DNA of 32,000 nucleotides from Candidatus Saccharimonadota bacterium (GTDB lineage: Archaea; Nanohalarchaeota; Nanosalinia; Nanosalinales; Nanosalinaceae), in contig CP012986.1 in assembly GCA_001761425.1 (NCBI GenBank), positions 720,001 through 752,000 of the forward strand. Reading direction: 5' to 3'. Below, one piece after another: positions 8,404 to 31,107 of this stretch. Made by a program: the position numbers and the translations under genes. The notes beneath the pieces are model-generated. The model did not search any database. It was not told the origin of the DNA and worked only from the letters and a program-made list of their open reading frames with translations. Position 1 is the first letter of the stretch. Every line of letters starts with the position of its first letter.

Positions 8404-9114
8404 ATGCAGATGACTAATCAGCAACAGCAGCAGTACGACCGTGGGGCAACGATTTTCTCTCCTGATGGACGTTTGTTCCAGGTTGAGTACGCTAAAGAAG
8501 CAGTTAAAAAAGGTGCTACAGCTCTAGGAGTGGTCTACGAGGACGGAGTGGTTCTTGCAGCTACACGGAATATTCCAGATCTCCAGGTCAGGAATCCTGA
8601 GAAAGTTTTCAAGATAGACAGTCATATCGGAGTCGCGACCTCAGGCCTTGTAGCAGACGGCAGAACACTTGTAGAAGAAGCGAGGAATGAAGCACAGAAG
8701 CATATGATGACTTACGATGAGGATATCCCTACTCCTGTGCTTGCGAAGTTCATCGCTGACAGATGTCAGCAGTTCACTCAGTACGGAGGAGTCAGGCCTT
8801 ACGGTCTCTCCACGATCTCCGGCGGTGTCAAGGACGGAGTTTCCAAGGTCTACCATACTGATCCTTCTGGAACTCTCTCAGAATGGAAGGCTATCGCCAT
8901 CGGTAAAGGCGGAGATGAAGCCAAGGAACACCTGGAGGAGAACTGGGAGGAAGGCCTCTCAGAGGAAGATGCAATGGAGCTTGCTGTTGAAGCCCTGGAG
9001 AAGGGAGAGGAAGACATCGGTACAGAAAACGTTGAAATGTCTGTAGTCGATGAGGAATCTCTTTTCAGGCGTGTCAGCCCTGAAGATCTTGAAGACCTGA
9101 GTGTCGACCTCTAG
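8404..9114 (+). CDS. psmA: Proteasome subunit alpha
   Basis: YDRGATIFSPDGRLFQVEYAKEAVKKGATALGV is the canonical alpha-subunit N-terminus. AGAGGTG Shine-Dalgarno lies about 10 nt upstream. Confidence 0.95.
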   Translation: MQMTNQQQQQYDRGATIFSPDGRLFQVEYAKEAVKKGATALGVVYEDGVVLAATRNIPDLQVRNPEKVFKIDSHIGVATSGLVADGRTLVEEARNEAQKHMMTYDEDIPTPVLAKFIADRCQQFTQYGGVRPYGLSTISGGVKDGVSKVYHTDPSGTLSEWKAIAIGKGGDEAKEHLEENWEEGLSEEDAMELAVEALEKGEEDIGTENVEMSVVDEESLFRRVSPEDLEDLSVDL

Positions 9115-9157
9115 ACCAACAGGTTTCTTATTCACATATTTTCCTTTTAATTAATAG

Positions 9158-9466
9158 ATGATAGAAGACCTTCTCATAGCTTCAGGCCTTCTTATAACTG
9201 CCTATCTTGCCTGGGAGTTCCAGAAAGGATGGATCGGAAACGAGTACCGGTCAACTACCTTTCTGAAGCTGAACAGGAAAAAGACCACCCTGGTGTTCGG
9301 ACTGGCGTTCCTCGGTTCACTATCGGTTTTCGCAGGAACAGTCTTCACAGGGCTTGGAAAAGAAGTTATGAGAAGTTTTGCATTCGATACAGGCCTCCTG
9401 TTTTACATGCTGTTTTTCTTCCTTTTGAACAGGCTTGCAGGAGGTGGTAGAAAATGGCTTCGATGA
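9158..9466 (+). CDS. Hypothetical membrane protein
   Basis: 102 codons with three hydrophobic segments. Contains AGGCCT copies like native DNA. Confidence 0.45.
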   Translation: MIEDLLIASGLLITAYLAWEFQKGWIGNEYRSTTFLKLNRKKTTLVFGLAFLGSLSVFAGTVFTGLGKEVMRSFAFDTGLLFYMLFFFLLNRLAGGGRKWLR

Positions 9467-9825
9467 CAGGAGCGTACATGACAGTACCTCTTGTATTGCT
9501 TTCAGGCCTTTTCATCTTTCAGATAATAAGGTGCCAGCAGAAAAGCTATGCAAGGCTCTCCTTCAAGGCCTTTGATGTACGTGTTTCTTTCCAGTTGATA
9601 ATGCTGGCTTTCGTGATCCTTTCGTTTTCCAGAGTTCCTGATTTACTTGGGTTTTCACAGCTAAATGTTACTGTTTCGATAACTGTAGGAAGCACTGCTA
9701 CTGTGCTTTTGACCGTCGCCTTCTTAATTCTGAATGCGGTGGTTTACGGACCGGGTAATCCTCTTTACTACCGTTTGCCGAGCAATTTCTTCGGTGACAG
9801 GGAGAGATATATCCACAGGGATTGA
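9454..9825 (+). CDS. Hypothetical membrane protein (alternative start 9463 would give an ATGA overlap)
   Basis: 123 codons with four hydrophobic segments. It overlaps the previous ORF's end. Confidence 0.45.
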   Translation: MASMTGAYMTVPLVLLSGLFIFQIIRCQQKSYARLSFKAFDVRVSFQLIMLAFVILSFSRVPDLLGFSQLNVTVSITVGSTATVLLTVAFLILNAVVYGPGNPLYYRLPSNFFGDRERYIHRD

Positions 9826-9865
9826 CAGGATAACAGGTTTAAAGAAAAAGGCCTTTTCTTAGGTT

Positions 9866-10543
9866 ATGGATACTTCTGATGCGATCAAGGTCAGGTACCA
9901 GGATTATGAGATACTTGTTGAGCCGGACCTGGCGAAGGAGGCCAAGCTCGAGGGTAAAGACCACAGTATTCAGAGACTGCTGTTTGTCCAGGAGGTCTTT
10001 GAGGACGCAGGTGACGGTAAGAGAGCTTCTGCTCAAGACCTGGAGGATGATTTCGGGACCAGACAGATCATGGAGGCTGCCGAGGAGATCTTCGAGAAAG
10101 GAGATATGCAGTTGACGACGGAACAGAAAAAGGAGATGAGAGAGGACAAACATAAACAGATCGTCAGCATGATCGCCCGCAGAGCCCAGGATCCGAAGAC
10201 AGGTAACCCACACCCACCGGAAAGAGTGCAGAACGCATTGGAAGAAGCAGGTTTCAACGCAGACGCCATGAAAGACGTCGAAGAACAGTTCGACGAGGCC
10301 ATCGACGAGATAAGGCCTATCATCCCTGTCTCTCTTGACGAAAAACAGGTCGCGATAAAGATACCGAGTGAAAAAGCTGGAAAGGCCTACGACAAGATAC
10401 AGAGTACCGCAGAGGTTCTCGAGGAGCAATGGGGCAACGAGTACTTCTTTGCAAAAATCAAGGTTCCCGCGGGCGTTCTGACAGAGCTGATGGAGGATAT
10501 CCAGGAGATCACAGGCGGGGAAAGCGAGGTAACAGAGACGTGA
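9866..10543 (+). CDS. sdo1: Ribosome maturation protein SBDS/Sdo1 homologue
   Basis: IKVRYQDYEILVEPDLAKEAK plus a length of about 225 aa and its position between psmA and rrp4, as in the conserved archaeal superoperon. Confidence 0.8.
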   Translation: MDTSDAIKVRYQDYEILVEPDLAKEAKLEGKDHSIQRLLFVQEVFEDAGDGKRASAQDLEDDFGTRQIMEAAEEIFEKGDMQLTTEQKKEMREDKHKQIVSMIARRAQDPKTGNPHPPERVQNALEEAGFNADAMKDVEEQFDEAIDEIRPIIPVSLDEKQVAIKIPSEKAGKAYDKIQSTAEVLEEQWGNEYFFAKIKVPAGVLTELMEDIQEITGGESEVTET

Positions 10544-10917
10544 GCACCTCACTGGTCTACCCGGAAAACAGTTACAGGGACGATCTGGAGATGATAGAAG
10601 AAGAACTCGGTGACAGAAGAATCGCCGGGGCAACAAGCACAGAGTTCCATGATGTAAAGCTTAGATGGAGCACAGGCCTTGAAGAAGACGAAGTTATGGC
10701 ACAGCTAGAAGATTTAGGCCTTGAACAGGAGGCTCTCGGCGCCCGACTGGAAAACGGTGCCCTGGTTAATTATTCAGATGGATGTGTTCAGTACTCCTCT
10801 CCTGAAGGAGATATCTCTCTTCTGCCAGAGGTCCTGGACTCTTCCATGGAGGAAAATGTTTACGGAGCAAGTTTTGCTGAAGGCCTTTCAGAACAGTATC
10901 GCTGGCTGGAAAATTAA
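10540..10917 (+). CDS. Hypothetical acidic protein inserted between SBDS and rrp4 (start uncertain: GTG 10540 or ATG 10591)
   Basis: Open frame. GTG 10540 overlaps the SBDS stop (GTGA). No motif recognised. The upstream part of track ORF 10429.. overlaps SBDS in another frame and is discounted. Confidence 0.4.
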   Translation: MSTSLVYPENSYRDDLEMIEEELGDRRIAGATSTEFHDVKLRWSTGLEEDEVMAQLEDLGLEQEALGARLENGALVNYSDGCVQYSSPEGDISLLPEVLDSSMEENVYGASFAEGLSEQYRWLEN

Positions 10918-11085
10918 CTCTCGGATAAAGTTGAGGGGGAGAAATTCGGAGTTTTCTGGACTCGTAGAAAATCTGGGATCTTCGAATACTAAGGAAGTTG
11001 AGGCGGTTATAAAAAGTTTCGGCCCGGCTTTGTTTTTACAAACAGCCATTTTCTAGTTTGAACGAAGTTTGAGGTAATACAATTT

Positions 11086-11775
11086 ATGTCACGTGTGAAA
11101 GAAGAAGATGACCTTGTAACTCCAGGAGATATGATAACTGATGCAGACGCTCTGTCTGCGACTTCTGGTGCTTACGAAGAAAATAATAAAATCTATTCAA
11201 AACACCTGGGAACTGTCCATTTCAATGGCCAGGAAGTTGAGGTAAGGCCTATGTCCGGTCGTTACATGCCTGAGGAAGGTGATACGATCATCGGAGAGGT
11301 CACGAGAGTCAGTTACTCTCGCTGGACTGTCGAGTTCAACTCTGCTTATGAAGGCAGTTTGAACATTGCTGATGCAACGGATGAGTACGTCGATCTTGAT
11401 GAAGACGATCTTTCTGACTTCTTTGAGGTTGGAGATGCTGTCGTGATCAAGGTTAAGTCCGTTACTGATGGCATGGACGTCGATCTTTCTATGAAAGATA
11501 AGAGATGTCGCAAGCTTGAAGGAGGACGTGTGATCGGGATTGCACCTTCCAAAGTTCCCCGTGTAATCGGTAAGAAGGGAACCATGGTTAAACAGATCAA
11601 CGAGAAGACCAACTGCAACATCATTGTCGGCCAGAACGGACAGGTCTGGATCTCGGGCGACAAAGCCAATCTTGCAGCGAGAGCTGTCAAAAAAGTAGAA
11701 AGAGAAGCCCACACAGAAAACCTGACTGACAGAATAAGTGAATGGCTTGAAGAAGAACTAGAGGGTGAAAAGTAA
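11086..11775 (+). CDS. rrp4: Exosome complex RNA-binding protein Rrp4 (S1 + KH)
   Basis: VTPGD...GDTIIGEVTRVSYSRWTVEF (S1 domain) followed by PSKVPRVIGKKGTMVKQINEKTNCNIIVGQNGQVWI (KH domain). Position is upstream of rrp41/rrp42. Confidence 0.9.
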   Translation: MSRVKEEDDLVTPGDMITDADALSATSGAYEENNKIYSKHLGTVHFNGQEVEVRPMSGRYMPEEGDTIIGEVTRVSYSRWTVEFNSAYEGSLNIADATDEYVDLDEDDLSDFFEVGDAVVIKVKSVTDGMDVDLSMKDKRCRKLEGGRVIGIAPSKVPRVIGKKGTMVKQINEKTNCNIIVGQNGQVWISGDKANLAARAVKKVEREAHTENLTDRISEWLEEELEGEK

Positions 11776-11776
11776 A

Positions 11777-12538
11777 ATGACAAGTTCAGATGAAGATATC
11801 GAATGGTTCGATGATGAAGGAAAACGTGTCGATGGAAGAGAGAAAGACGAACTAAGAGAGACAGAGATGGAAGTCGATGTCCTAACTGAAGCAGACGGAT
11901 CCGCAATGGTCGAAGTCGGCAACACCAGAGTAGTTGCATCCGTCTTCGGACCTCAGGAGCTTCACCCAAAACACCTTCAGGAAAGTGACCGTGCTGTAAT
12001 CAAGATGCGTTACAACATGGCACCTTTCTCTGTTGACGACAGGATGAGCCCTGGACCGAACAGAAGAGCAAAAGAGATAGGCCTTGTAGCCAAAAAGGCC
12101 CTGGAACCAGCTATCGAGATGGAGAAATTCCCGACCGCAGGAATCGATATCTCGATGGAAGTAATGGAATCCGACGGAGGAACAAGAGTAACAGGTATCA
12201 CAGCAGCAGCTCTTGCACTCGCCGACGCAGGCATCCCTATGAAAGGAATGGTTTCCTCGACAGCAGCAGGAGTAGTAGACGAGACACCTGTCCTCGACGT
12301 TAACGGAAAAGAAGACAAGGAAGGGAACGCAGACATCCCTATCGCACTCATCAACTACGACGAGGACGGCGAACACGTCGGTGAAGAGATCACTCTGGTC
12401 CAGATGGACGGAGACCTCACACAGGAACAGGTAGAGGACTGCATCAAACTTGCGAAGGACGGATGCAGACAGCTACACGAAATGCAGCAGGAAGCAATGC
12501 TTGAAAAATACAGAGAACTCAGAGGAGGTGATTTCTAA
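11777..12538 (+). CDS. rrp41: Exosome complex exonuclease Rrp41 (RNase PH domain)
   Basis: RVDGREKDELRE...EADGSAMVEVGNTRVVASVFGP is an RNase PH-type N-terminus. I prefer ATG 11777, with AGGGTGA 8 nt upstream, over the track's GTG 11765. Confidence 0.9.
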   Translation: MTSSDEDIEWFDDEGKRVDGREKDELRETEMEVDVLTEADGSAMVEVGNTRVVASVFGPQELHPKHLQESDRAVIKMRYNMAPFSVDDRMSPGPNRRAKEIGLVAKKALEPAIEMEKFPTAGIDISMEVMESDGGTRVTGITAAALALADAGIPMKGMVSSTAAGVVDETPVLDVNGKEDKEGNADIPIALINYDEDGEHVGEEITLVQMDGDLTQEQVEDCIKLAKDGCRQLHEMQQEAMLEKYRELRGGDF

Positions 12539-13329
12539 TGAAACTTAATCAAAAGACAATCCGCGAAATGGCGGAAGACGGAGAAAGACTCGACGGCAGA
12601 GGCCTCAAAGAGATGAGAGACGTCAAAGTCGAGACAGATTACATCAATGAAACTTCAGAAGGTTCAGCACTTGTAGAAATCGGAGACACGAAAGTCCTTG
12701 TAGGCCTTTCAGTCGAGATAGAGGAACCTTACAGCGACAGGCCTGGAAAGGGAACAATCGTTACGAACGCAGAGCTTGCTCCTATGGCTCGGCGTGACTA
12801 CGAGTCAGGTCCTCCACAGGAAGACGGAGTCGAACTCGCAAGAGTAGTCGACAGAGGAATCAGAGAGGCTGAAGCTATCGACCTTGAAGACCTCTGTATG
12901 GTAGAGGGAGAGAAGGTCTACACAGTCTTCATCGATGCCCACGTCCTGAACGACGATGGGAATCTGATCGATGCGACATCCTTAGCTGCTATGGCAGCAC
13001 TCAAGTCCGGATACCTTCCAGCTTATGACGAAGAAGCAGGAGAGCTCAACAGAGATGAGAAATGGAAGGACTTCGATCTTCAGTGTGAACCAGTCACAGT
13101 TACCGGCCACAAGATCGGCGACACAGTCATGTGGGATGTCACAGGGGAAGAAGAGAAGGCCCTCGACGCTCGCCTGACAGTTGCGAAGAAAAAAGATGGA
13201 AACATCGTCGCAATGCAGAAGGGAGAGACTCAGCCTTTCACAGCTGACGAGATGTCCCAGATTATGTCGACAGCGGACGAGAAAATCCAGAAATTCCGTG
13301 AAATCCTCGAAGCAGAGGTAGGGGAATAA
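12538..13329 (+). CDS. rrp42: Exosome complex protein Rrp42 (RNase PH-like, non-catalytic)
   Basis: RLDGRGLKEMRDVKVETDYINETSEGSALVEIGDTKVLVG. TAATG overlap with rrp41. GGAGGTGA at 12524-12531. Confidence 0.9.
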   Translation: MKLNQKTIREMAEDGERLDGRGLKEMRDVKVETDYINETSEGSALVEIGDTKVLVGLSVEIEEPYSDRPGKGTIVTNAELAPMARRDYESGPPQEDGVELARVVDRGIREAEAIDLEDLCMVEGEKVYTVFIDAHVLNDDGNLIDATSLAAMAALKSGYLPAYDEEAGELNRDEKWKDFDLQCEPVTVTGHKIGDTVMWDVTGEEEKALDARLTVAKKKDGNIVAMQKGETQPFTADEMSQIMSTADEKIQKFREILEAEVGE

Positions 13330-24558: not shown

Positions 24559-25836
24559 TCAATGCTCGAACTTCCCGACCCGGGACTGGACCGCCTTGAA
24601 AACCTCCTCTCTATCAACTGTCTGTAAGACACCGTCTTCAACCACCTTTTCACCATTCACGTAGACTTCTGAGACATCGCCGTCAAAACTGTAGACAAGG
24701 TTAGAAACGACTCCTCTGGCCCGGTAGAAAGGCCTCATTGAGGGCTGTTTCAGATCGATTGTAACCAGGTCTGCTTTCTTTCCTTCCTCTATGCTTCCTA
24801 CCCTGTCGTCGATGTTCAGGGCCTTGGCTCCCTTGATCGTCATCATGTCAAAGATTTCCTGCTCTGTAAGTGCCTCGGGATCCTGTTCCTTGTGGATCAG
24901 GGCGGAGAGTTTGGCCTCGTCAAAAATGTTCAAACTGTTGTTTGAGGCAGGTCCGTCTGTTCCAAGGCCTATGTCGAGGCCTCTTTCCTCAAGTTCTATT
25001 ATGTCTGCGCGTCCGCTTCCCAGTTTCATGTTCGCTGCGGGGTTGTGTGCGAGGCCTGTCTTGGTCCTCTGTAGTCTCAGCATGTCGTCTTCTGTGAGGT
25101 GTGTTCCGTGGGCTGCGATGACTTTTTCGTCCAGTATTCCGAGTTCGTCGAGGTACTCTGTCGGTGTCATACCTCTTTCCTCGAGCATGTCATTGTTCTC
25201 CTTCTCTGTCTCCGAGAGATGGATGTGGTAAAGTGTATCGTATTTTTCCGCTAATTCCTTAGCATTGAGTAAGAGATCTTCAGAACATGTATATACGGAG
25301 TGAGGAGCTACTCCAATATCGATCGTATCGTGGCCTGCGTATTCTCTGATCAGGTCTTCAGCCCCATACATATCTGCTTTATCCTCTATATCGGTGAGGC
25401 CTTTCGAGAGAACTGCTCTTATCCCTGTATCCTCTACTGCGTCGGCGACACTTTCCATATGGAAGTACATGTCGTTGAAGGTTGTCGTACCTGTCTCCAG
25501 CATCTCTATCGATGCTAGAACTGTTCCGAGATATGCGTCGGTCTCCTCGATATCCTCTTCCGCCGGGAAAATATAGCTTTCCAGCCATTCCTGGAGATTC
25601 GTGTTGTCCGAGATCCCGCGTAACAGAGTCATGGAAGAATGGGTGTGTGCGTTGACAAGGCCTGGAATCACGACTTTTTCCGAGCAGTCGATTACCTCTT
25701 CCGGGTTGATGAAGTCTGTGAGGCCTCTTCCGATCTCGTAGATCTTGTCTTCGTGTATGAGAACGTCGACGTGTTCCTTTATCTCCCTTTCTTCATTCTG
25801 GGTTACGAGGAACCTCACGTTTTTGAGCAACTTCAT
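24559..25836 (-). CDS. mtaD: Amidohydrolase, MTA/SAH (5'-deoxyadenosine) deaminase MtaD-like
   Basis: VIPGLVNAHTHSSMTLLRG, HIHLSET, AHGTHL and GLGTDG are the metal-binding motifs of the chlorohydrolase/deaminase family. I chose the start at MKLLKNVRFLV (25836). Confidence 0.65.
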   Translation of the reverse strand: MKLLKNVRFLVTQNEEREIKEHVDVLIHEDKIYEIGRGLTDFINPEEVIDCSEKVVIPGLVNAHTHSSMTLLRGISDNTNLQEWLESYIFPAEEDIEETDAYLGTVLASIEMLETGTTTFNDMYFHMESVADAVEDTGIRAVLSKGLTDIEDKADMYGAEDLIREYAGHDTIDIGVAPHSVYTCSEDLLLNAKELAEKYDTLYHIHLSETEKENNDMLEERGMTPTEYLDELGILDEKVIAAHGTHLTEDDMLRLQRTKTGLAHNPAANMKLGSGRADIIELEERGLDIGLGTDGPASNNSLNIFDEAKLSALIHKEQDPEALTEQEIFDMMTIKGAKALNIDDRVGSIEEGKKADLVTIDLKQPSMRPFYRARGVVSNLVYSFDGDVSEVYVNGEKVVEDGVLQTVDREEVFKAVQSRVGKFEH

Positions 25837-26050
25837 AACAAAGGTCGGGGGACTGAACTTTAATAGGGTCTTGGCAGTCAAGCCTGGAGGCCTCAGGTGG
25901 TCTATGCGTTTCCTTTAAATTAGTTGTTGAACTAGGGTTAAAGTATGCGCCATGCATCAACCAAGGGTGGACGCGTTCTACCCGGGAAGGTACGCATCTA
26001 AGTTTTCAAAACCTGTAGTTAATACTGAATTCTTCTCTGAGTGGTACTGA

Positions 26051-27787
26051 ATGTCAGCTGACAGCAGTGAGGGCCTTGTGTACAGTGAGGTTCTTGAAGA
26101 GTTTACCGAGGATTTTGCCTCGAACTTTGAGGATAACACTGCTCCGACGGGAATGGGGATAGAGTCAGAGATCCCTAATGTCAGAGCAGAGGACGGTATC
26201 ATGCCGCTCGCCGACCAGTATCAGGGCATTATCAGTGAAGGCCTCTGGGAAAGTATTGAGGAGGAACTTGAGGAAAACGTTGAGGGATACGGCGAGGACT
26301 TCAGCTTCGAGTTCGAAGGAGTCAAGGAGAAAGGCCATTTCGAGGATATGCCAGCAGAGATGAATATCGGGATCGCTGAAAGCCCGGATGAAGTGATTGA
26401 TACCCCTGCGGTTGACTGGGAGATAGGGCCTCAGATCGAGAACGATTCAGGTGCTTTTCAGATCGATGGAACCGGTAATTTCGGTACTCTTCTTGATGTA
26501 CTTGAATCTGTGAAAGCAGGTACCCGGAAGTACATGGCCCAGAATCATCCAGAGATTGTTCCTGCGGATCAGGGCCTTACAAGACAGTTCCGTGAACCAG
26601 GAGAGGTTCCTGACGAGGTCGAAAGACTTGATGGTGAAGGCCAGAGAGATGTAGTCAAAAGAGGTGTAGGACAGGATTATGGCCGGGATGAGGCCCTGGA
26701 GTTTATCGAAAATTTCTACGATCATTTCAGTTCTATCGAGTACTGTGCGGATTATATCGGTACTATCTTCGGCCCTCAGATAATGGAGAACATGTTTGGA
26801 GGTTCGACGCAGCTTACGTCAGGCCTCTGGCATGAAGGTGATGAAGAGATAGATCTTGATGAGCGGGTCAGCGAGGAGATGGCGTACAGGATTATATTCG
26901 AAGCAGGTTTCGACGCGCTCGCATCTAACGTCTACGAAGAAGAGGAAGGAATACCTGAGAGAAAGGTAGGAGTGAACCAGGATTACTGGGAGGCCTCGGC
27001 CTATGCTCAGCATTTCCTTGACGATGCGGATGTCGATGAGGATGCTCTTGGCCGCACAGGAACTCCATGGGAAATGATCCAGACAGTGGTTGAAGAGGAT
27101 GAATCCTTCCAGGCGATGGTTGATCATTACATGACAGAGCACAACATGGCCTGGATAACACCTCCGGAGGAAGAACACGTAGAGTTCGAGGATGGAACTC
27201 CTGAAGGATTCGATTACGAAAGTGTTGCCTTGCTTGCTGTAGACCCTGATAATCCAAAGACTCCGAGAGAATACATCGAAGACGATGAGGTAAAGTTCTC
27301 CAAAGTCGTCAGCGATGAGGAAGGAGGCTTTGAAAAGGTCACCGGAACAGTTGATCTCTCCAGCATGGACGAGGAATCAGCAAAGCAGTATCACAAGGCC
27401 AACTTCTCCCAGGTTCATATCGGAGGGATGCACCACGATGTAAGGCCTAAATTTAGCACTGGAGGTTTCGAGTACAGGAATGCACGCCAGAACTACGATG
27501 CCGAGCCTAGCGTTGCGATCGCCAAGGCCTCAGTTATGCCTCACGGAGATAAAATCGTAGACGTGATGCAGGATTACGGTATTGATCCTATGGATCCTGA
27601 GACTGTTCCCGACTACGATGACAAAGAGGCCTGGACTGAGATCTTCAGCGAGGTATACGATGATGAAGTAGTAGAGACTGCTGAAGAGATGGCACCGGCT
27701 TACGTGGACGAGTTCCAGACCTATGTACAGAAAAGGCTTTCAGATCCCTCGGAAATCATGAGCGGTATCGACCAGACAAAGGTATGA
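26051..27787 (+). CDS. Large acidic protein with divergent carboxylate-amine ligase (GCS2/YbdK-like) motifs, paralogue 1
   Basis: GMGIESEI (GxExE). WEIGPQIENDSG (xQIE). FGGSTQLTSG in place of the GxHVHVG box. HDVRPKFSTGGFEYRNAR, compare WDIRPSPHFGTVEVRVMD in E. coli YbdK as I recall it. Confidence 0.45.
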   Translation: MSADSSEGLVYSEVLEEFTEDFASNFEDNTAPTGMGIESEIPNVRAEDGIMPLADQYQGIISEGLWESIEEELEENVEGYGEDFSFEFEGVKEKGHFEDMPAEMNIGIAESPDEVIDTPAVDWEIGPQIENDSGAFQIDGTGNFGTLLDVLESVKAGTRKYMAQNHPEIVPADQGLTRQFREPGEVPDEVERLDGEGQRDVVKRGVGQDYGRDEALEFIENFYDHFSSIEYCADYIGTIFGPQIMENMFGGSTQLTSGLWHEGDEEIDLDERVSEEMAYRIIFEAGFDALASNVYEEEEGIPERKVGVNQDYWEASAYAQHFLDDADVDEDALGRTGTPWEMIQTVVEEDESFQAMVDHYMTEHNMAWITPPEEEHVEFEDGTPEGFDYESVALLAVDPDNPKTPREYIEDDEVKFSKVVSDEEGGFEKVTGTVDLSSMDEESAKQYHKANFSQVHIGGMHHDVRPKFSTGGFEYRNARQNYDAEPSVAIAKASVMPHGDKIVDVMQDYGIDPMDPETVPDYDDKEAWTEIFSEVYDDEVVETAEEMAPAYVDEFQTYVQKRLSDPSEIMSGIDQTKV

Positions 27788-27812
27788 GGCCTCCAGGCCT
27801 CTCCCAACCCCT

Positions 27813-27838
27813 GGTTTCTCCCCCGGAGCCTAGAAACC
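27813..27838 (+). terminator. Inverted repeat GGTTTCT-12 nt-AGAAACC downstream of 26051..27787
   Basis: 7-bp stem read directly. Only TTT follows, so terminator function is uncertain. Confidence 0.25.
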
Positions 27839-28064
27839 TTTAAAAACGTTAAAGGCCGAAGTAAGTTTAAGATGTCACTGACTGACCACGAAAACATTTC
27901 AGCAGATGGTTTGGTCAGTCTTATCGCTATCATTATTATCTCAATTATTGTATAGAGAGGCCTAACCCCTGAAACGGAGTGTAGAAGCGGGACGGGCCTC
28001 AGAGGAAAAATTAACTTAGTCCAGTTTCTACGCTCCACCAGAACAACTCGGTGGAACAAAAAGT

Positions 28065-29987
28065 ATGTCGGCAAGCACTAAACAAACGCAGCAAAACGTG
28101 AAACAGTCCCTCAGCTCTACCTGGGACCAAAACCATAGAGAAAACAGCATCTACAACGTCGGAGCAGAGGTAGAGGACCTCCTCTTCCACAGGAACAGGG
28201 AACCGGTGGACAACCAGATCACGGAGAGAGTTCTCAGGAATATCGTGGAGAAAGAGGATGCTGAGGCCAAGGAACAGGTTATCGACGGCGAAAAAAGACT
28301 TCTTGGCACGAAATTAGAAGATAAAAGATTCCAGAAACACGAGGACTTCGCTGCGGAGATAGATACTGATTACCATCCTGCTCAAAGCGAGATCGCAACC
28401 GAGGTATTCCAGAACCCTGCCGACATGGCCTTCAGGACAGAGAACCTCCGCTACCTGAGAGACAGGAACCTTCCCGACAAAGTATCAAGCCACAAAATCG
28501 GAATGTTCCCGGACATGTCACTGCTACAAAAAGATCCTGAACACCTGGCAAGGCCTAAAAAGCGTTACAAAGGCCTTAGTTCCAGGCACGGAGAGGCCTT
28601 CGGCTCGATGGGATGGATCGGTGCCACACAGTTGAATACAGGAAGCCCGGCAGGTGAGGAGATGAGGACGGAAGAGTTTTTCCACAGCTTCTTTGACGGA
28701 GGAGAACAGCCTTCAATGCTTGATGTAGTCCCGGCTGTAGATCCTCTGTTCGCCTCGGATCCTGTCTTCGAAAAAAACGATGATTTATATGAGACGGTCG
28801 CGGAAGGCGGAAGAGACATGGTTTATGACCTGTTCGTCTCTAAATCTCCTGCAGTTTTAAGAAGAGGTACAGAACGCTGGGGAGATGTACTCGACGAAGC
28901 CCTGCCGACCAACGAAAACTACGGATACATAGAAGATTTGAGAGGCCTCGAAGATCAGGAAGACTACCTTGATATGGCTATGGAAAGGCCTATGATTCTT
29001 TCACCGGAGATAGATGCTTCAGATGTCGAAGTACTTGATCCTGAGACCCGTGAACCGGTCGGGAGCTTCGAAGACGTATACGGCGAGGATTCTACATGGG
29101 TGATGCCAGGCCTCTCAGAGGTTGAGGAGTCAACAGTCACTTTCGAGCAGTTCCTGGAGGACGAGATGTACCTGGGAGAAGTTCTTGTAGATGGAGAGAT
29201 GAAGCCGGTGAAAGTCGATCACAGCGACATGGAAGATGAGGAATTCACCGAGCTGGCAGGCCTCGGTCCTGAAGACGGAGCAGGTTACTTCAATTTCCAC
29301 AACACTTTTGTCAGGCCTGATGTGGCTCCGAAGAACAACGGAGTCGTCGAGTTCCGTTCTTTCTCCAACAGCGACAGGAGCTACGAGGCCTTGCTGACCC
29401 AGAACAGTTTGATGCATGTCTACCAGGATGTGCAGGAGCTTTTCGCAGGTCATGGTTTGACAAGTGATAATTCCCTGGAGTTCCGTGAGGATGCGAAGCG
29501 TAGAGGCCTTGATGCCGAGCTTCCTTCGGGAAGTACGGTTCAGAGCGTATATGAGAATGAGCTTGTGGATGTTCTATCTGAAGGTGTCAGGGAGAGCTTT
29601 TCCGGCGAGACTCCTTACTCCATGGAGGTTGTACTTGAAGGCGCGGATAGTTACGATGACTTCGGCGATTATCTTCAAACAGAGTTCAACGATCTCTCCG
29701 ATTTCGCCGAGTATACCGCGGTCGCGTTCGAAACCGGTGTAAGGCCTGAACCCGGCGAATATTCAGGTGAAGAGCACCGTGAAGAACAGGAGAAGTTCGT
29801 GGACTGGTTTGTAGATACCTACAGAGAAACCATGCATGAGTACCTGGAAGATGAGTTCAAAGGAGACAGCTACGACACGAGAAACTTCCAGACAGAGTCG
29901 AAGAAGCTTGAAAAAGCTGTTAACGAGGGAGGCCTCAAGAAGATGCTTGAAGTCACAGCAAGGCCTGAAACCGGAGAGGCAAGATAG
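28065..29987 (+). CDS. Large acidic protein with divergent carboxylate-amine ligase (GCS2/YbdK-like) motifs, paralogue 2
   Basis: NVGAEVEDLL (GxExE). HPAQSEIATEVFQNP. KIGMFP. IGATQLNTG in place of GxHVHVG. FVRPDVAPKNNGVVEFRSFSNSD. Motif order is the same as in 26051..27787. Confidence 0.5.
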   Translation: MSASTKQTQQNVKQSLSSTWDQNHRENSIYNVGAEVEDLLFHRNREPVDNQITERVLRNIVEKEDAEAKEQVIDGEKRLLGTKLEDKRFQKHEDFAAEIDTDYHPAQSEIATEVFQNPADMAFRTENLRYLRDRNLPDKVSSHKIGMFPDMSLLQKDPEHLARPKKRYKGLSSRHGEAFGSMGWIGATQLNTGSPAGEEMRTEEFFHSFFDGGEQPSMLDVVPAVDPLFASDPVFEKNDDLYETVAEGGRDMVYDLFVSKSPAVLRRGTERWGDVLDEALPTNENYGYIEDLRGLEDQEDYLDMAMERPMILSPEIDASDVEVLDPETREPVGSFEDVYGEDSTWVMPGLSEVEESTVTFEQFLEDEMYLGEVLVDGEMKPVKVDHSDMEDEEFTELAGLGPEDGAGYFNFHNTFVRPDVAPKNNGVVEFRSFSNSDRSYEALLTQNSLMHVYQDVQELFAGHGLTSDNSLEFREDAKRRGLDAELPSGSTVQSVYENELVDVLSEGVRESFSGETPYSMEVVLEGADSYDDFGDYLQTEFNDLSDFAEYTAVAFETGVRPEPGEYSGEEHREEQEKFVDWFVDTYRETMHEYLEDEFKGDSYDTRNFQTESKKLEKAVNEGGLKKMLEVTARPETGEAR

Positions 29988-29988
29988 G

Positions 29989-31107
29989 ATGAAGACAGAA
30001 GAACTGGCAAAAGAACTGATGAAGTACGAGACAGTTTCACCAATCGAAAACCCGGATGCATTCCAGTTCCTGAAAGGAGTACTGGAGGACGAGGGAATAA
30101 ACGCAGAGATCAGGGAGATAAACGGCGTCTACAACCTTGTAGCAGAGACCGGAGATCCTGAAGCAGAAGAATCAGTCTGTCTCAACGGCCACATGGACGT
30201 AGTGGAACCAGAGGGAGAATGGAGCATCACAGAACCGTTTGAACCCGTAGAGGAAAACGGAAAGCTCTACGGCAGGGGAGCAGCCGATATGAAAGGTGCG
30301 CTAGCCGCCCAGACCAAGGCCTTCATCGATCTACACCGCGACAGCGAGTTCAACGGCCGGGCAGTACTGATGGCAGTAGGAGACGAAGAGATCGGAGGAT
30401 TCGACGGCTCCAAGGTACTGGCAAACGAATACAGCGAAAAAGGAAAGGGCTTCGACCATGTGATAGTCGGAGAACCAACAGACCTGGACTTACAGGTCGG
30501 AACAAGAGGCCTGTTCTGGGCAAACGTCTACCTGAAAGGAGAATCTGTTCATGCGACAAGGCCTCACCTCGCAGAGACGAATACAATGGAAAAACTGCCT
30601 GAAGCCCTGAAAAGACTGGGGAACCTGGAGATGAGCTTTGAAAACGATGGCCCTCTGCCTGATCCTTCCTCAGAGGTTACGATAGTCGAGTCAACCGATA
30701 CCTACAACAGTATCCCTGCCGAGGTCAAGATAGGCATGGATTTAAGGTATCTTCCAGGACAGAAAGTTGATGAAGTAGTCGAAGATATAGAAAACAGTCT
30801 TGAAGGCCTTGAAGTCGATGTCGAAGTTGAAGTTGAACAGGATCACGGCGGAGACTTCAAATTAGAGGATGAAAAGTTCAGAAACACTGCTTTCAATGTT
30901 CTAATAGAGGTCAGAGGTGAAGAACCGGAGCAGATTACTTCTGGAGGTGCCTCAGATGGGCGTTTCTTCTCGAACAATGGAACACCGTTCATAGAGCTGG
31001 GTGTCAACCAGGAATCAGTCCACGGCGAAAACGAGTACTGTACAGTAGATAACCTGAAGAAACTGAGAAAGGCCTACTTCGATATCAGTAAAAGAATGGC
31101 GGGGTAA
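29989..31107 (+). CDS. M20 family metallopeptidase/deacylase (ArgE/DapE-like)
   Basis: CLNGHMDVVEP, GRGAADMKG, GDEEIGG and GGASDG are M20 metal-binding and catalytic motifs. ATG 29989 lies 1 nt after the upstream stop. The track start 29836 overlaps the previous gene and is rejected. Confidence 0.75.
   Translation: MKTEELAKELMKYETVSPIENPDAFQFLKGVLEDEGINAEIREINGVYNLVAETGDPEAEESVCLNGHMDVVEPEGEWSITEPFEPVEENGKLYGRGAADMKGALAAQTKAFIDLHRDSEFNGRAVLMAVGDEEIGGFDGSKVLANEYSEKGKGFDHVIVGEPTDLDLQVGTRGLFWANVYLKGESVHATRPHLAETNTMEKLPEALKRLGNLEMSFENDGPLPDPSSEVTIVESTDTYNSIPAEVKIGMDLRYLPGQKVDEVVEDIENSLEGLEVDVEVEVEQDHGGDFKLEDEKFRNTAFNVLIEVRGEEPEQITSGGASDGRFFSNNGTPFIELGVNQESVHGENEYCTVDNLKKLRKAYFDISKRMAG

Follow-up and report, generated by a model that had tools for sequence, protein, structure and literature searches.

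Two very divergent glutamate-cysteine ligase-like protein families encoded together with an M20 metallohydrolase in a putative nanohaloarchaeal amide-bond operon

The 32,000-nt stretch of DNA analysed here (contig CP012986.1), called the window and numbered throughout from its first letter, carries three co-directional genes on the plus strand, named A, B and M20 in the following. The nearest relatives of the window genes are found in Candidatus Nanohalobium, Nanosalina and other metagenome-assembled genomes (MAGs) of Nanohaloarchaea. Proteins A and B are currently annotated as hypothetical; they represent new, far diverged subfamilies within the known enzyme superfamily of glutamate-cysteine ligase (GCL) and appear to belong to a lineage-specific operon with a metallohydrolase of the peptidase M20 family. 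An earlier sequence-only reading of this DNA had described two large acidic genes with an M20 gene at 1-nt spacing, and the open reading frames (ORFs) agree with it: the stop codon of B, TAG, occupies 29985-29987, and 1 nt later M20 begins with the ATG at 29989. The M20 reading frame is open from 29836; the start was taken at the ATG at 29989, which gives the N-terminus MKTEEL, as in the orthologues. The three genes and the spacer between the first two are as follows.

26051-27787, plus strand: gene A (ORF), 578 aa, a highly divergent GCL-like protein
27788-28064, no strand: A-B intergenic spacer, 277 nt
28065-29987, plus strand: gene B (ORF), 640 aa, a GCL-fold protein
29989-31107, plus strand: M20 metallohydrolase gene (ORF, Pfam), 372 aa, DapE/ArgE-like

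The window has a G+C content of about 47-50%. Protein A has an isoelectric point of 4.05 and consists of aspartate and glutamate to 24.6%, the corresponding values for B being 4.35 and 22.2%. As M20 and the amidohydrolase encoded next door are nearly as acidic, this composition reflects the proteome of a halophile as a whole and is not special to A and B. Rfam and tRNA scans gave no match in the A-B spacer or in the rest of the window.

Four landmark motifs led the sequence-only reading to place both large proteins among the carboxylate-amine ligases of the GCS2 family. These motifs are indeed present in the same order in A and B, and none of their key residues varies among 18 orthologues of A and 26 of B, a conservation far above chance. 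Their positions, with the residues of Escherichia coli GshA to which those of A correspond, are listed here.

26156-26170, plus strand: A motif 1, GIESE, residues 36-40, equivalent to GshA E27 and E29
26414-26440, plus strand: A motif 2, DWEIGPQIE, residues 122-130, equivalent to GshA D60 and E67
26798-26824, plus strand: A motif 3, GGSTQLTSG, residues 250-258
27437-27478, plus strand: A motif 4, DVRPKFSTGGFEYR, residues 463-476, equivalent to GshA E328 and R330
28161-28175, plus strand: B motif 1, GAEVE, residues 33-37
28362-28391, plus strand: B motif 2, DTDYHPAQSE, residues 100-109, aligning to QTDFAESQLE of GshAB
28620-28643, plus strand: B motif 3, GATQLNTG, residues 186-193, for which plant GCL has TVQVNL and nanohaloarchaeal GCS2 STQLNV
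29310-29357, plus strand: B motif 4, VRPDVAPKNNGVVEFR, residues 416-431, for which plant GCL has PEVRLKRYLEMR

The assignment to GCL/GCS2-type ligases stands for the fold class and fails for the curated family. A and B have no match in Pfam or NCBIfam, the YbdK and GCL models of NCBIfam included, and neither matches the Pfam GCS2 model PF04107 (gathering score 21 bits) at an E-value (E) <=1; the same is true, even at that threshold, of all 32 sequences of type B or of the related subfamily C described below (0/32; 0/10 for the C members). No match to the Pfam Gln-synt model was obtained that would place A or B with the glutamine synthetases of types I-III. By contrast, the AlphaFold2 model of B is confident (predicted local distance difference test, pLDDT, 83; predicted template-modelling score, pTM, 0.87), carries all four motifs on predicted β-strands and, in a Foldseek comparison with the PDB, has as its best match the plant GCL 2gwc (E 1.5e-10; target-normalised template-modelling score, TM, 0.70). 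All 24 matches of B at E<=1e-3 are to plant GCL, YbdK (1r8g, 1tt4), the GshA of E. coli and Francisella, GshAB, and PafA. Dop ranks below these; the glutamine synthetases, which align partially, do not come up below E 0.086.

Profile comparisons of sequence lead to the same superfamily. Separate profiles of A and B returned nothing relevant from the PDB, and a merged profile of B and C returned from the whole PDB only GshAB (E 0.02), with DTDYxPxQxE aligned to QTDFAESQLE, and plant GCL (E 1.6), aligned on GxExE. Against the nanohaloarchaeal GCS2 proteins that Pfam does recognise, the B+C profile scores 90% in hhalign (E 1.7e-6) with motifs 1-3 in register. Judged by its predicted structure, then, B is a GCL-fold protein beyond the reach of the curated GCS2 model. 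Homologues of gene B fall into 36 clusters, and a literature search found no description of the A/B/C family.

The relationship between A and B becomes visible through a third group. When 1.84 billion representatives were searched exhaustively with the B profile in HMMER, only 19 clusters came back, among them a set of 540-602-aa single-copy proteins for which the name subfamily C is given here. That A and B are paralogues, as the sequence-only reading had it, cannot be seen by direct comparison, which gives E 0.55 in BLASTP and 13% in hhalign, limited to the C-terminal motif region. In hhalign, however, C is related to B at 100% (E 3e-46) and to A at 97.9% (E 3.7e-13, 474 columns), and A aligns with the merged B+C profile at 98.8% (E 6.9e-17) over 486 columns across both proteins with the four motifs aligned. 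Reversed or column-shuffled control profiles reach scores of 17-24 (<=0.8%) against 138 for the real comparison of A with B+C, and two unrelated acidic nanohaloarchaeal families, one of 449-483 aa (family D) and one of 392 aa, give <=0.5% in hhalign against GCS2 and A/B/C. These controls show that the similarity is not an artefact of composition. Family D itself contains a stretch, VVLKTDPMGSWGDSIVVF, which looks ATP-grasp-like.

Since A and B are each homologous over their full length to C, the profiles make them remote paralogues. The 18 orthologues of gene A (46-98% identity) all come from nanohaloarchaeal sources, and 0/18 have a Pfam match. The AlphaFold2 model of A is poor (pLDDT 57) and has no meaningful Foldseek match, so that a GCL/GCS2-type fold is inferred for A from the homology of its profile with that of B+C over the full length. 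Depending on the genome, B is preceded by A or by a C-type gene, and C is apparently the ancestral single-copy form. This suggests that an ancestral C-M20 pair gave rise to B by duplication, after which the upstream copy diverged fast into A. A genome scan for subfamily C found no relatives, and its taxonomy therefore rests on genomic context.

The catalytic positions known from GCL can be followed through all three subfamilies. The Mg ligands of E. coli GshA are Glu27, Glu29, Asp60, Glu67, His150 and Glu328 (PMC12817896). In 32 B+C sequences with pairwise identities down to 19-25%, the invariant residues are G33, E35, E37, D102, E109, Y168, Q189, R250, Y254, E429, R431, R474 and G481 (numbering of B); by motif order and partial alignments, E35, E37, D102, E109, Q189 and E429 correspond to the GshA Mg ligands and R431 to the arginine of the E-x-R element. 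A retains the same positions as E38, E40, D/E124, E130, Q254 and E474, with R476 as the E-x-R arginine. On this mapping the acidic ligands and the E-x-R arginine are present in A, B and C, and the metal-ligand positions of GCL appear to be conserved throughout.

This also bears on the shared TQL box, which the sequence-only reading had interpreted as an altered histidine box and hence as a sign of changed chemistry or of a non-catalytic role. That interpretation finds no support. Plant GCL has TVQVNL and a Pfam-positive nanohaloarchaeal GCS2 protein STQLNV at this position, the other metal-ligand positions are invariant, and glutamine is here the usual residue of the plant-type branch, the members of which are active ligases, and gives no reason to assume different chemistry. 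A difference between the subfamilies lies elsewhere: in profile alignments, the place of R250, which is invariant in B and C and is the arginine of the 'S-x-R...W' box of GCS2, is taken in A by an equally invariant tryptophan, W313, and A has no counterpart of the R167-Y168 motif of B and C. The loss of two substrate-side arginine positions suggests, from alignments of modest reliability, that A acts on another substrate or is an accessory protein.

The third protein was correctly assigned to the M20 family from the start. It contains the catalytic domain (PF01546 Peptidase_M20, E 4e-38) and the dimerisation domain (PF07687 M20_dimer, E 6e-11), its best PDB matches are DapE structures aligned end to end (E 4e-35), and its motifs GHxDVV, GAADMKG, DEE, GEP and HxxNE align with DapE 3ic1, which brings the H/D/EE/E/H di-metal ligand motifs into line and places it in the ArgE/DapE subfamily. 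It scores under every NCBIfam equivalog cut-off, those of the DapE and ArgE models included; the best model, NF009557, gives 226 bits against a cut-off of 284, and TIGR01246 gives 206 against 362. For this reason it should not be named DapE, and the designation 'succinyl-diaminopimelate desuccinylase', which several sources assign automatically, is probably wrong for the clade. The M20 proteins of the loci compared are mutual orthologues at 39-86% identity. Within the orthogroup as a whole identity runs from 97% down to 40% and then drops to 32-33% for generic DapE/M20 proteins, from which it is read as a nanohaloarchaeal clade of its own.

The association of this M20 gene with the ligase-like genes was compared in every locus that could be fetched from related genomes (L-numbers). 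An M20 orthologue lies directly 3' of the last A, B or C gene in the window, L001, L004, L006, L008, L011-L017, L019-L021 and L023, as expected if the two are co-conserved, and in loci with gene calls the junction varies only between a 4-nt overlap and a 3-nt gap (-4 to +3 nt). Junctions this tight indicate that M20 is translationally coupled to the ligase-like gene before it. Three arrangements occur.

A or C-type gene, then B, then M20: window, L001-3, L006/7, L008/9, L015, L016, L017, L019, L020
C, then M20: L011, L012, L013, L014, L021, L023, with a fragmented copy in L022
A, then an AstE-like::M20 fusion: L004/5

The A-B spacer is long and variable, with 277 nt in the window, about 296 in L006, 396 in L008 and about 870 in L001 and L015. 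The flanking genes differ wholly between clades, being proteasome and exosome genes at some loci and RadB-like, ribosomal-protein or tRNA-synthetase genes at others. As the flanks vary while the ligase-M20 pair stays, the pair is the conserved unit. All named sources of the A/B/C family are nanohaloarchaea. In terms of gene content, what defines this candidate lineage-specific amide-bond operon is that an A, B or C gene always stands directly 5' of one particular DapE-like M20 gene.

A conserved DNA motif of 15 nt accompanies the operon on its 5' side. Its consensus is AGGTGGAC(G/A)CGTTCT, in which all positions but one are invariant, and it was found at 8 loci, once per locus and on the coding strand, about 85-100 nt 5' of the first ligase-like gene. 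In L004, where the context is unrelated, it lies about 230 nt 5' of a 254-aa gene that is followed by a threonine-dehydratase-like gene, A and the AstE::M20 fusion; the threonine-dehydratase-like gene gave no functional clue. No RNA covariation was detected for the motif, which is probably a protein-binding site and thus a candidate cis-regulatory element of the operon.

25965-25979, plus strand: conserved 15-nt DNA motif AGGTGGACGCGTTCT, about 85 nt 5' of the ATG of gene A
Positions of the motif: window 25965; L001 7890; L004 6468; L006 8905; L008 6554; L015 67; L016 5764; L017 5884

Gene A and its upstream region are also bracketed by a perfect 14-nt inverted repeat, GCCTGGAGGCCTCA at 25882-25895 and TGAGGCCTCCAGGC at 27785-27798, the second arm of which overlaps the stop codon of A. 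The window holds only these two copies; at least two matches with <=2 mismatches were seen in 4 of 100 shuffles.

Some members of the family show irregularities or additional features. In contigs resembling Candidatus Nanosalina sp. J07AB43 (L001 9806-12561; L018 6682-9787), gene B is broken into two pieces coding for 453 and 180 aa, which might reflect a frameshift, pseudogene formation or faulty assembly, and an unrelated ORF of 179 aa fills the A-B spacer there. The L016 contig (JBLGBK010000008.1), from a MAG that bears the title 'Colwellia polaris', has the C-B-M20 arrangement typical of nanohaloarchaea, with a B protein 60% identical to that of the window, and is probably mis-binned or mislabelled. 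Just 5' of the C-type gene in L011 (2651-2773) and L023 (3984-4085) there is a small conserved ORF of 33-40 aa with a hydrophobic sequence (…DTQV.G…IAIILxILIIS). In the cultivated Ca. Nanohalococcus occultus, the genes SVXNc_0218-0220 are annotated as a hypothetical protein, a peptidase M28/Iap and a succinylglutamate desuccinylase, with expression values for all three (PMC10266531 supplement); by gene annotation they may be an equivalent module. The 'GshAB' of Reva et al. 2023 (PMC10266531) was considered as a member of this family and rejected, as the genes concerned are of the RimK-type ATP-grasp class and lie at another locus.

In the window, M20 is followed on its 3' side by a DEAD-box helicase gene that extends past the window end. 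On the 5' side, the minus strand carries a TRZ/ATZ-type amidohydrolase gene, the gene of the proteasome beta subunit (psmB) and an archaeal beta-CASP RNase gene, whose Pfam domain architecture is identical in L001, together with an exosome-proteasome cluster. The amidohydrolase resembles MTA/SAH (methylthioadenosine/S-adenosylhomocysteine) or 5'-deoxyadenosine deaminases and scores below the equivalog cut-offs; its orthologue in relatives (54% identity) is found at the far end of the ligase/hydrolase island, and this shift in position indicates a local rearrangement. A PADLOC search for defence systems returned nothing.

24559-25881, minus strand: TRZ/ATZ-family amidohydrolase gene, between psmB and A
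8404-13329: exosome-proteasome cluster of the classic archaeal type with PsmA, SBDS, Rrp4, Rrp41 and Rrp42, syntenic with related loci

Related genomes have further pairs of a putative ligase and a metallohydrolase beside the operon, none of which lies inside the window, although they may be present past its 3' end. In some of these pairs a Pfam-positive GCS2 protein (422-499 aa) or an unannotated protein of 449-483 aa is encoded by a gene overlapping an AstE/aspartoacylase-like gene by 4 nt, and in others a 392-aa protein without known family is encoded directly 5' of a second M20. An M29/NicX-like gene is likewise present beside the operon in related genomes, and L004 has the AstE::M20 fusion. 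The extra pairs occupy L001 13992-16264, L006 15568-19731, L008 12431-14781, L019 8770-12954 and L004 10836-13550.

Taken as a whole, the proteins of the operon are best interpreted as ATP-dependent carboxylate-amine ligases of the GCL/GCS2 class (A and B) and a coupled M20 enzyme that would cleave the same general type of amide, a proposal that is held with reasonable, if far from complete, confidence. As in GCL, Mg-ATP held by the conserved Glu/Asp/Gln cluster would be used to phosphorylate the carboxylate of the substrate, and the resulting acyl-phosphate would be attacked by an amine to give the amide. Because B and C keep the arginine of the 'S-x-R...W' box, the carboxylate would most likely be that of a glutamate-like or dicarboxylate substrate. 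A would probably act on a substrate other than that of B or serve as its accessory partner, possibly in a complex with it. M20 would hydrolyse an N-(carboxyacyl)- or γ-glutamyl-type amide in the same pathway, whether to remove a protecting group, to recycle the product or to supply a substrate. DapE cleaves an N-(3-carboxypropanoyl) amide, a bond chemically near the γ-glutamyl amide made by GCL.

Several points weigh against this proposal. To make and to break the same type of bond within one operon looks futile unless there are intermediate steps or regulation, and the operon has no genes for these. The fold can also serve an amidase, as in Dop, and need not belong to a ligase. No curated model recognises A or B, the structure model of A is unreliable so that its fold comes solely through homology, and the equation of Q189 with His150 of GshA depends on motif order and the plant GCL alignment.

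The alternative that survives best, while being unlikely, turns the futile pairing into an all-hydrolytic pathway. According to this explanation the GCL-fold proteins would be Dop-like amidases with the nucleotide as a cofactor, which together with M20 and, in related genomes, the AstE-like and M29-like hydrolases would form a catabolic route, freeing amino acids from γ-glutamyl or N-acyl peptides that an auxotrophic symbiont scavenges from its host. Foldseek matches B to Dop and PafA as well (E 1.8e-4 to 2e-2), and the neighbourhoods in related genomes are rich in hydrolases (AstE-like, a second M20, M29/NicX-like and the amidohydrolase). The true ligases, plant GCL, YbdK and GshA/GshAB, nevertheless match far better than Dop in both structure and sequence, the full GCL set of metal ligands and arginine is conserved, and no Dop-specific feature was identified.

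Next in rank, and again improbable, is the explanation that B, and C in other genomes, is the γ-glutamylcysteine ligase GshA of this lineage, making the thiol of halophilic archaea, with A as a degenerate regulatory duplicate and M20 as a dipeptidase of thiol or peptide turnover. The top structural match to plant GCL, the conservation of the glutamate-side arginine and of all metal ligands in B and C, and the absence of two substrate-side arginine positions from A would fit this well. Several genomes, however, encode in addition a Pfam-positive GCS2 protein that stands nearer to the plant/YbdK-type GCL and is a more obvious candidate for GshA, and the cysteine-binding residues could not be mapped. 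The gshA loci described so far are not known to be strictly coupled to a gene for a DapE-like enzyme, which counts against the explanation as well.

A bolder idea, to which a low probability is given, is that the operon both builds and removes a new γ-glutamyl-type conjugate, made by a heteromeric GCL-fold pair (A with B, or C with B) and edited by a dedicated DapE-like hydrolase. A hitherto unknown metabolite, either a small thiol or a peptide, could be the conjugate, or else a tag similar to that of pupylation, attached to proteins or to a carrier. If this were true, the operon and the ligase/metallohydrolase pairs that adjoin it in related genomes would constitute a larger amide-remodelling island central to the amino-acid economy of the symbiont.

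It is very improbable that A and B are protein modifiers of the PafA/Dop kind which carry out a pupylation-like tagging tied to the proteasome genes, with M20 trimming or removing the tag. This explanation draws on the position of the operon beside the proteasome beta gene and the exosome-proteasome cluster in the window and several relatives, on the fold shared with PafA and Dop, and on the two paralogues, which echo the PafA-Dop pair. The proteasome adjacency is nevertheless absent from six loci (L004, L011, L012 and L021-L023), all of which retain the M20 linkage, and in the window itself the amidohydrolase gene stands between psmB and A. Pup ligases are not the closest relatives of B, with a TM of 0.30-0.37 to PafA/Dop against 0.70 for plant GCL; the Pup_ligase model of Pfam gave no match, and a partial check saw no conserved Pup-like small ORF. 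The hydrophobic products of the small ORFs 5' of C in L011 and L023 look like membrane peptides rather than Pup. Least probable of all, and strongly disfavoured, is a role of A and B as non-enzymatic acidic structural or scaffold proteins with a fortuitous motif resemblance: the missing Pfam/NCBIfam matches, the extremely acidic composition and the poor model of A might suggest it, but the motif residues do not vary even between orthologues with an overall identity of just 35-47%, the Foldseek and hhalign matches are significant with clean negative controls, and the motifs lie on predicted active-site strands.

A fold and a probable reaction class are thus assigned to two conserved 'hypothetical proteins' of Nanohaloarchaea that lie outside all curated family models. 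Their genes form a strictly conserved two- or three-gene operon of GCL-like ligase(s) and an M20 deacylase in organisms which are thought to be nearly without biosynthetic metabolism. If ATP-spending amide ligases are kept in the reduced genome of a symbiont, their product should matter; it might be a thiol, an amino acid in protected form, or a conjugate of a peptide or protein. The operon provides a concrete handle for testing: its proteins are open to expression, and Nanohalobium and Nanohalococcus are available in co-culture.

Among known systems, the GCL of the plant/α-proteobacterial type (2gwc, 6gmo; the plant GCL group in Pfam GCS2) is the best structural match of B, and both share the glutamine strand (TVQVNL in plant GCL, ATQLNT in B), an 'ALFANSPF'-like helix, the arginine box and the E-x-R strand. 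They differ in that identity is only about 14% and that PF04107 does not extend to B. With about 450 aa plant GCL is also about 190 aa shorter than B, which has an inserted β-rich region (approximately residues 300-400) and a long C-terminal helical extension. Unlike plant GCL, the A/B/C family has split by duplication into subfamilies that have diverged, and its coupling to an M20 gene is constant. YbdK (GCS2; 1r8g, 1tt4) is similar to B in fold (Foldseek E 4e-7, TM 0.59) and in the order of motifs 1-4, and differs in its length of about 370 aa and in having a His-rich box where A and B have T-Q-L. The near doubling in length noted in the sequence-only reading therefore applies to YbdK alone, as plant GCL is the closest structural relative.

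E. coli GshA and the γ-GCL domain of GshAB (1v4g, 3ln7) share with B the fold and the sequence of motif 2, and the GshA Mg ligands E27, E29, D60, E67 and E328 have invariant counterparts in the A/B/C family. The differences are the glutamine in place of His150, a TM of about 0.4 and an operon without a glutathione synthetase partner. PafA and Dop resemble A and B in the superfamily fold, in forming a paralogue pair and in the proteasome genes nearby in some genomes; they differ in their low TM and in that here neither a Pup-like gene nor a conserved proteasome linkage was found. The DapE/ArgE deacylases of the M20 family, to which the hydrolase aligns from end to end with its metal and catalytic motifs kept, form a clade separate from it, in line with its 226 bits against a cut-off of 284. 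In the amino-group-carrier pathways of LysX-LysK and ArgX-ArgE, an ATP-dependent amide ligase is likewise combined with an M20 deacylase, and the pairing in the nanohaloarchaeal operon resembles that logic. Unlike LysX and ArgX, however, the ligases of this operon have the GCL fold instead of the ATP-grasp fold, and they are accompanied in it by M20 without genes for a carrier protein or for the intermediate pathway.

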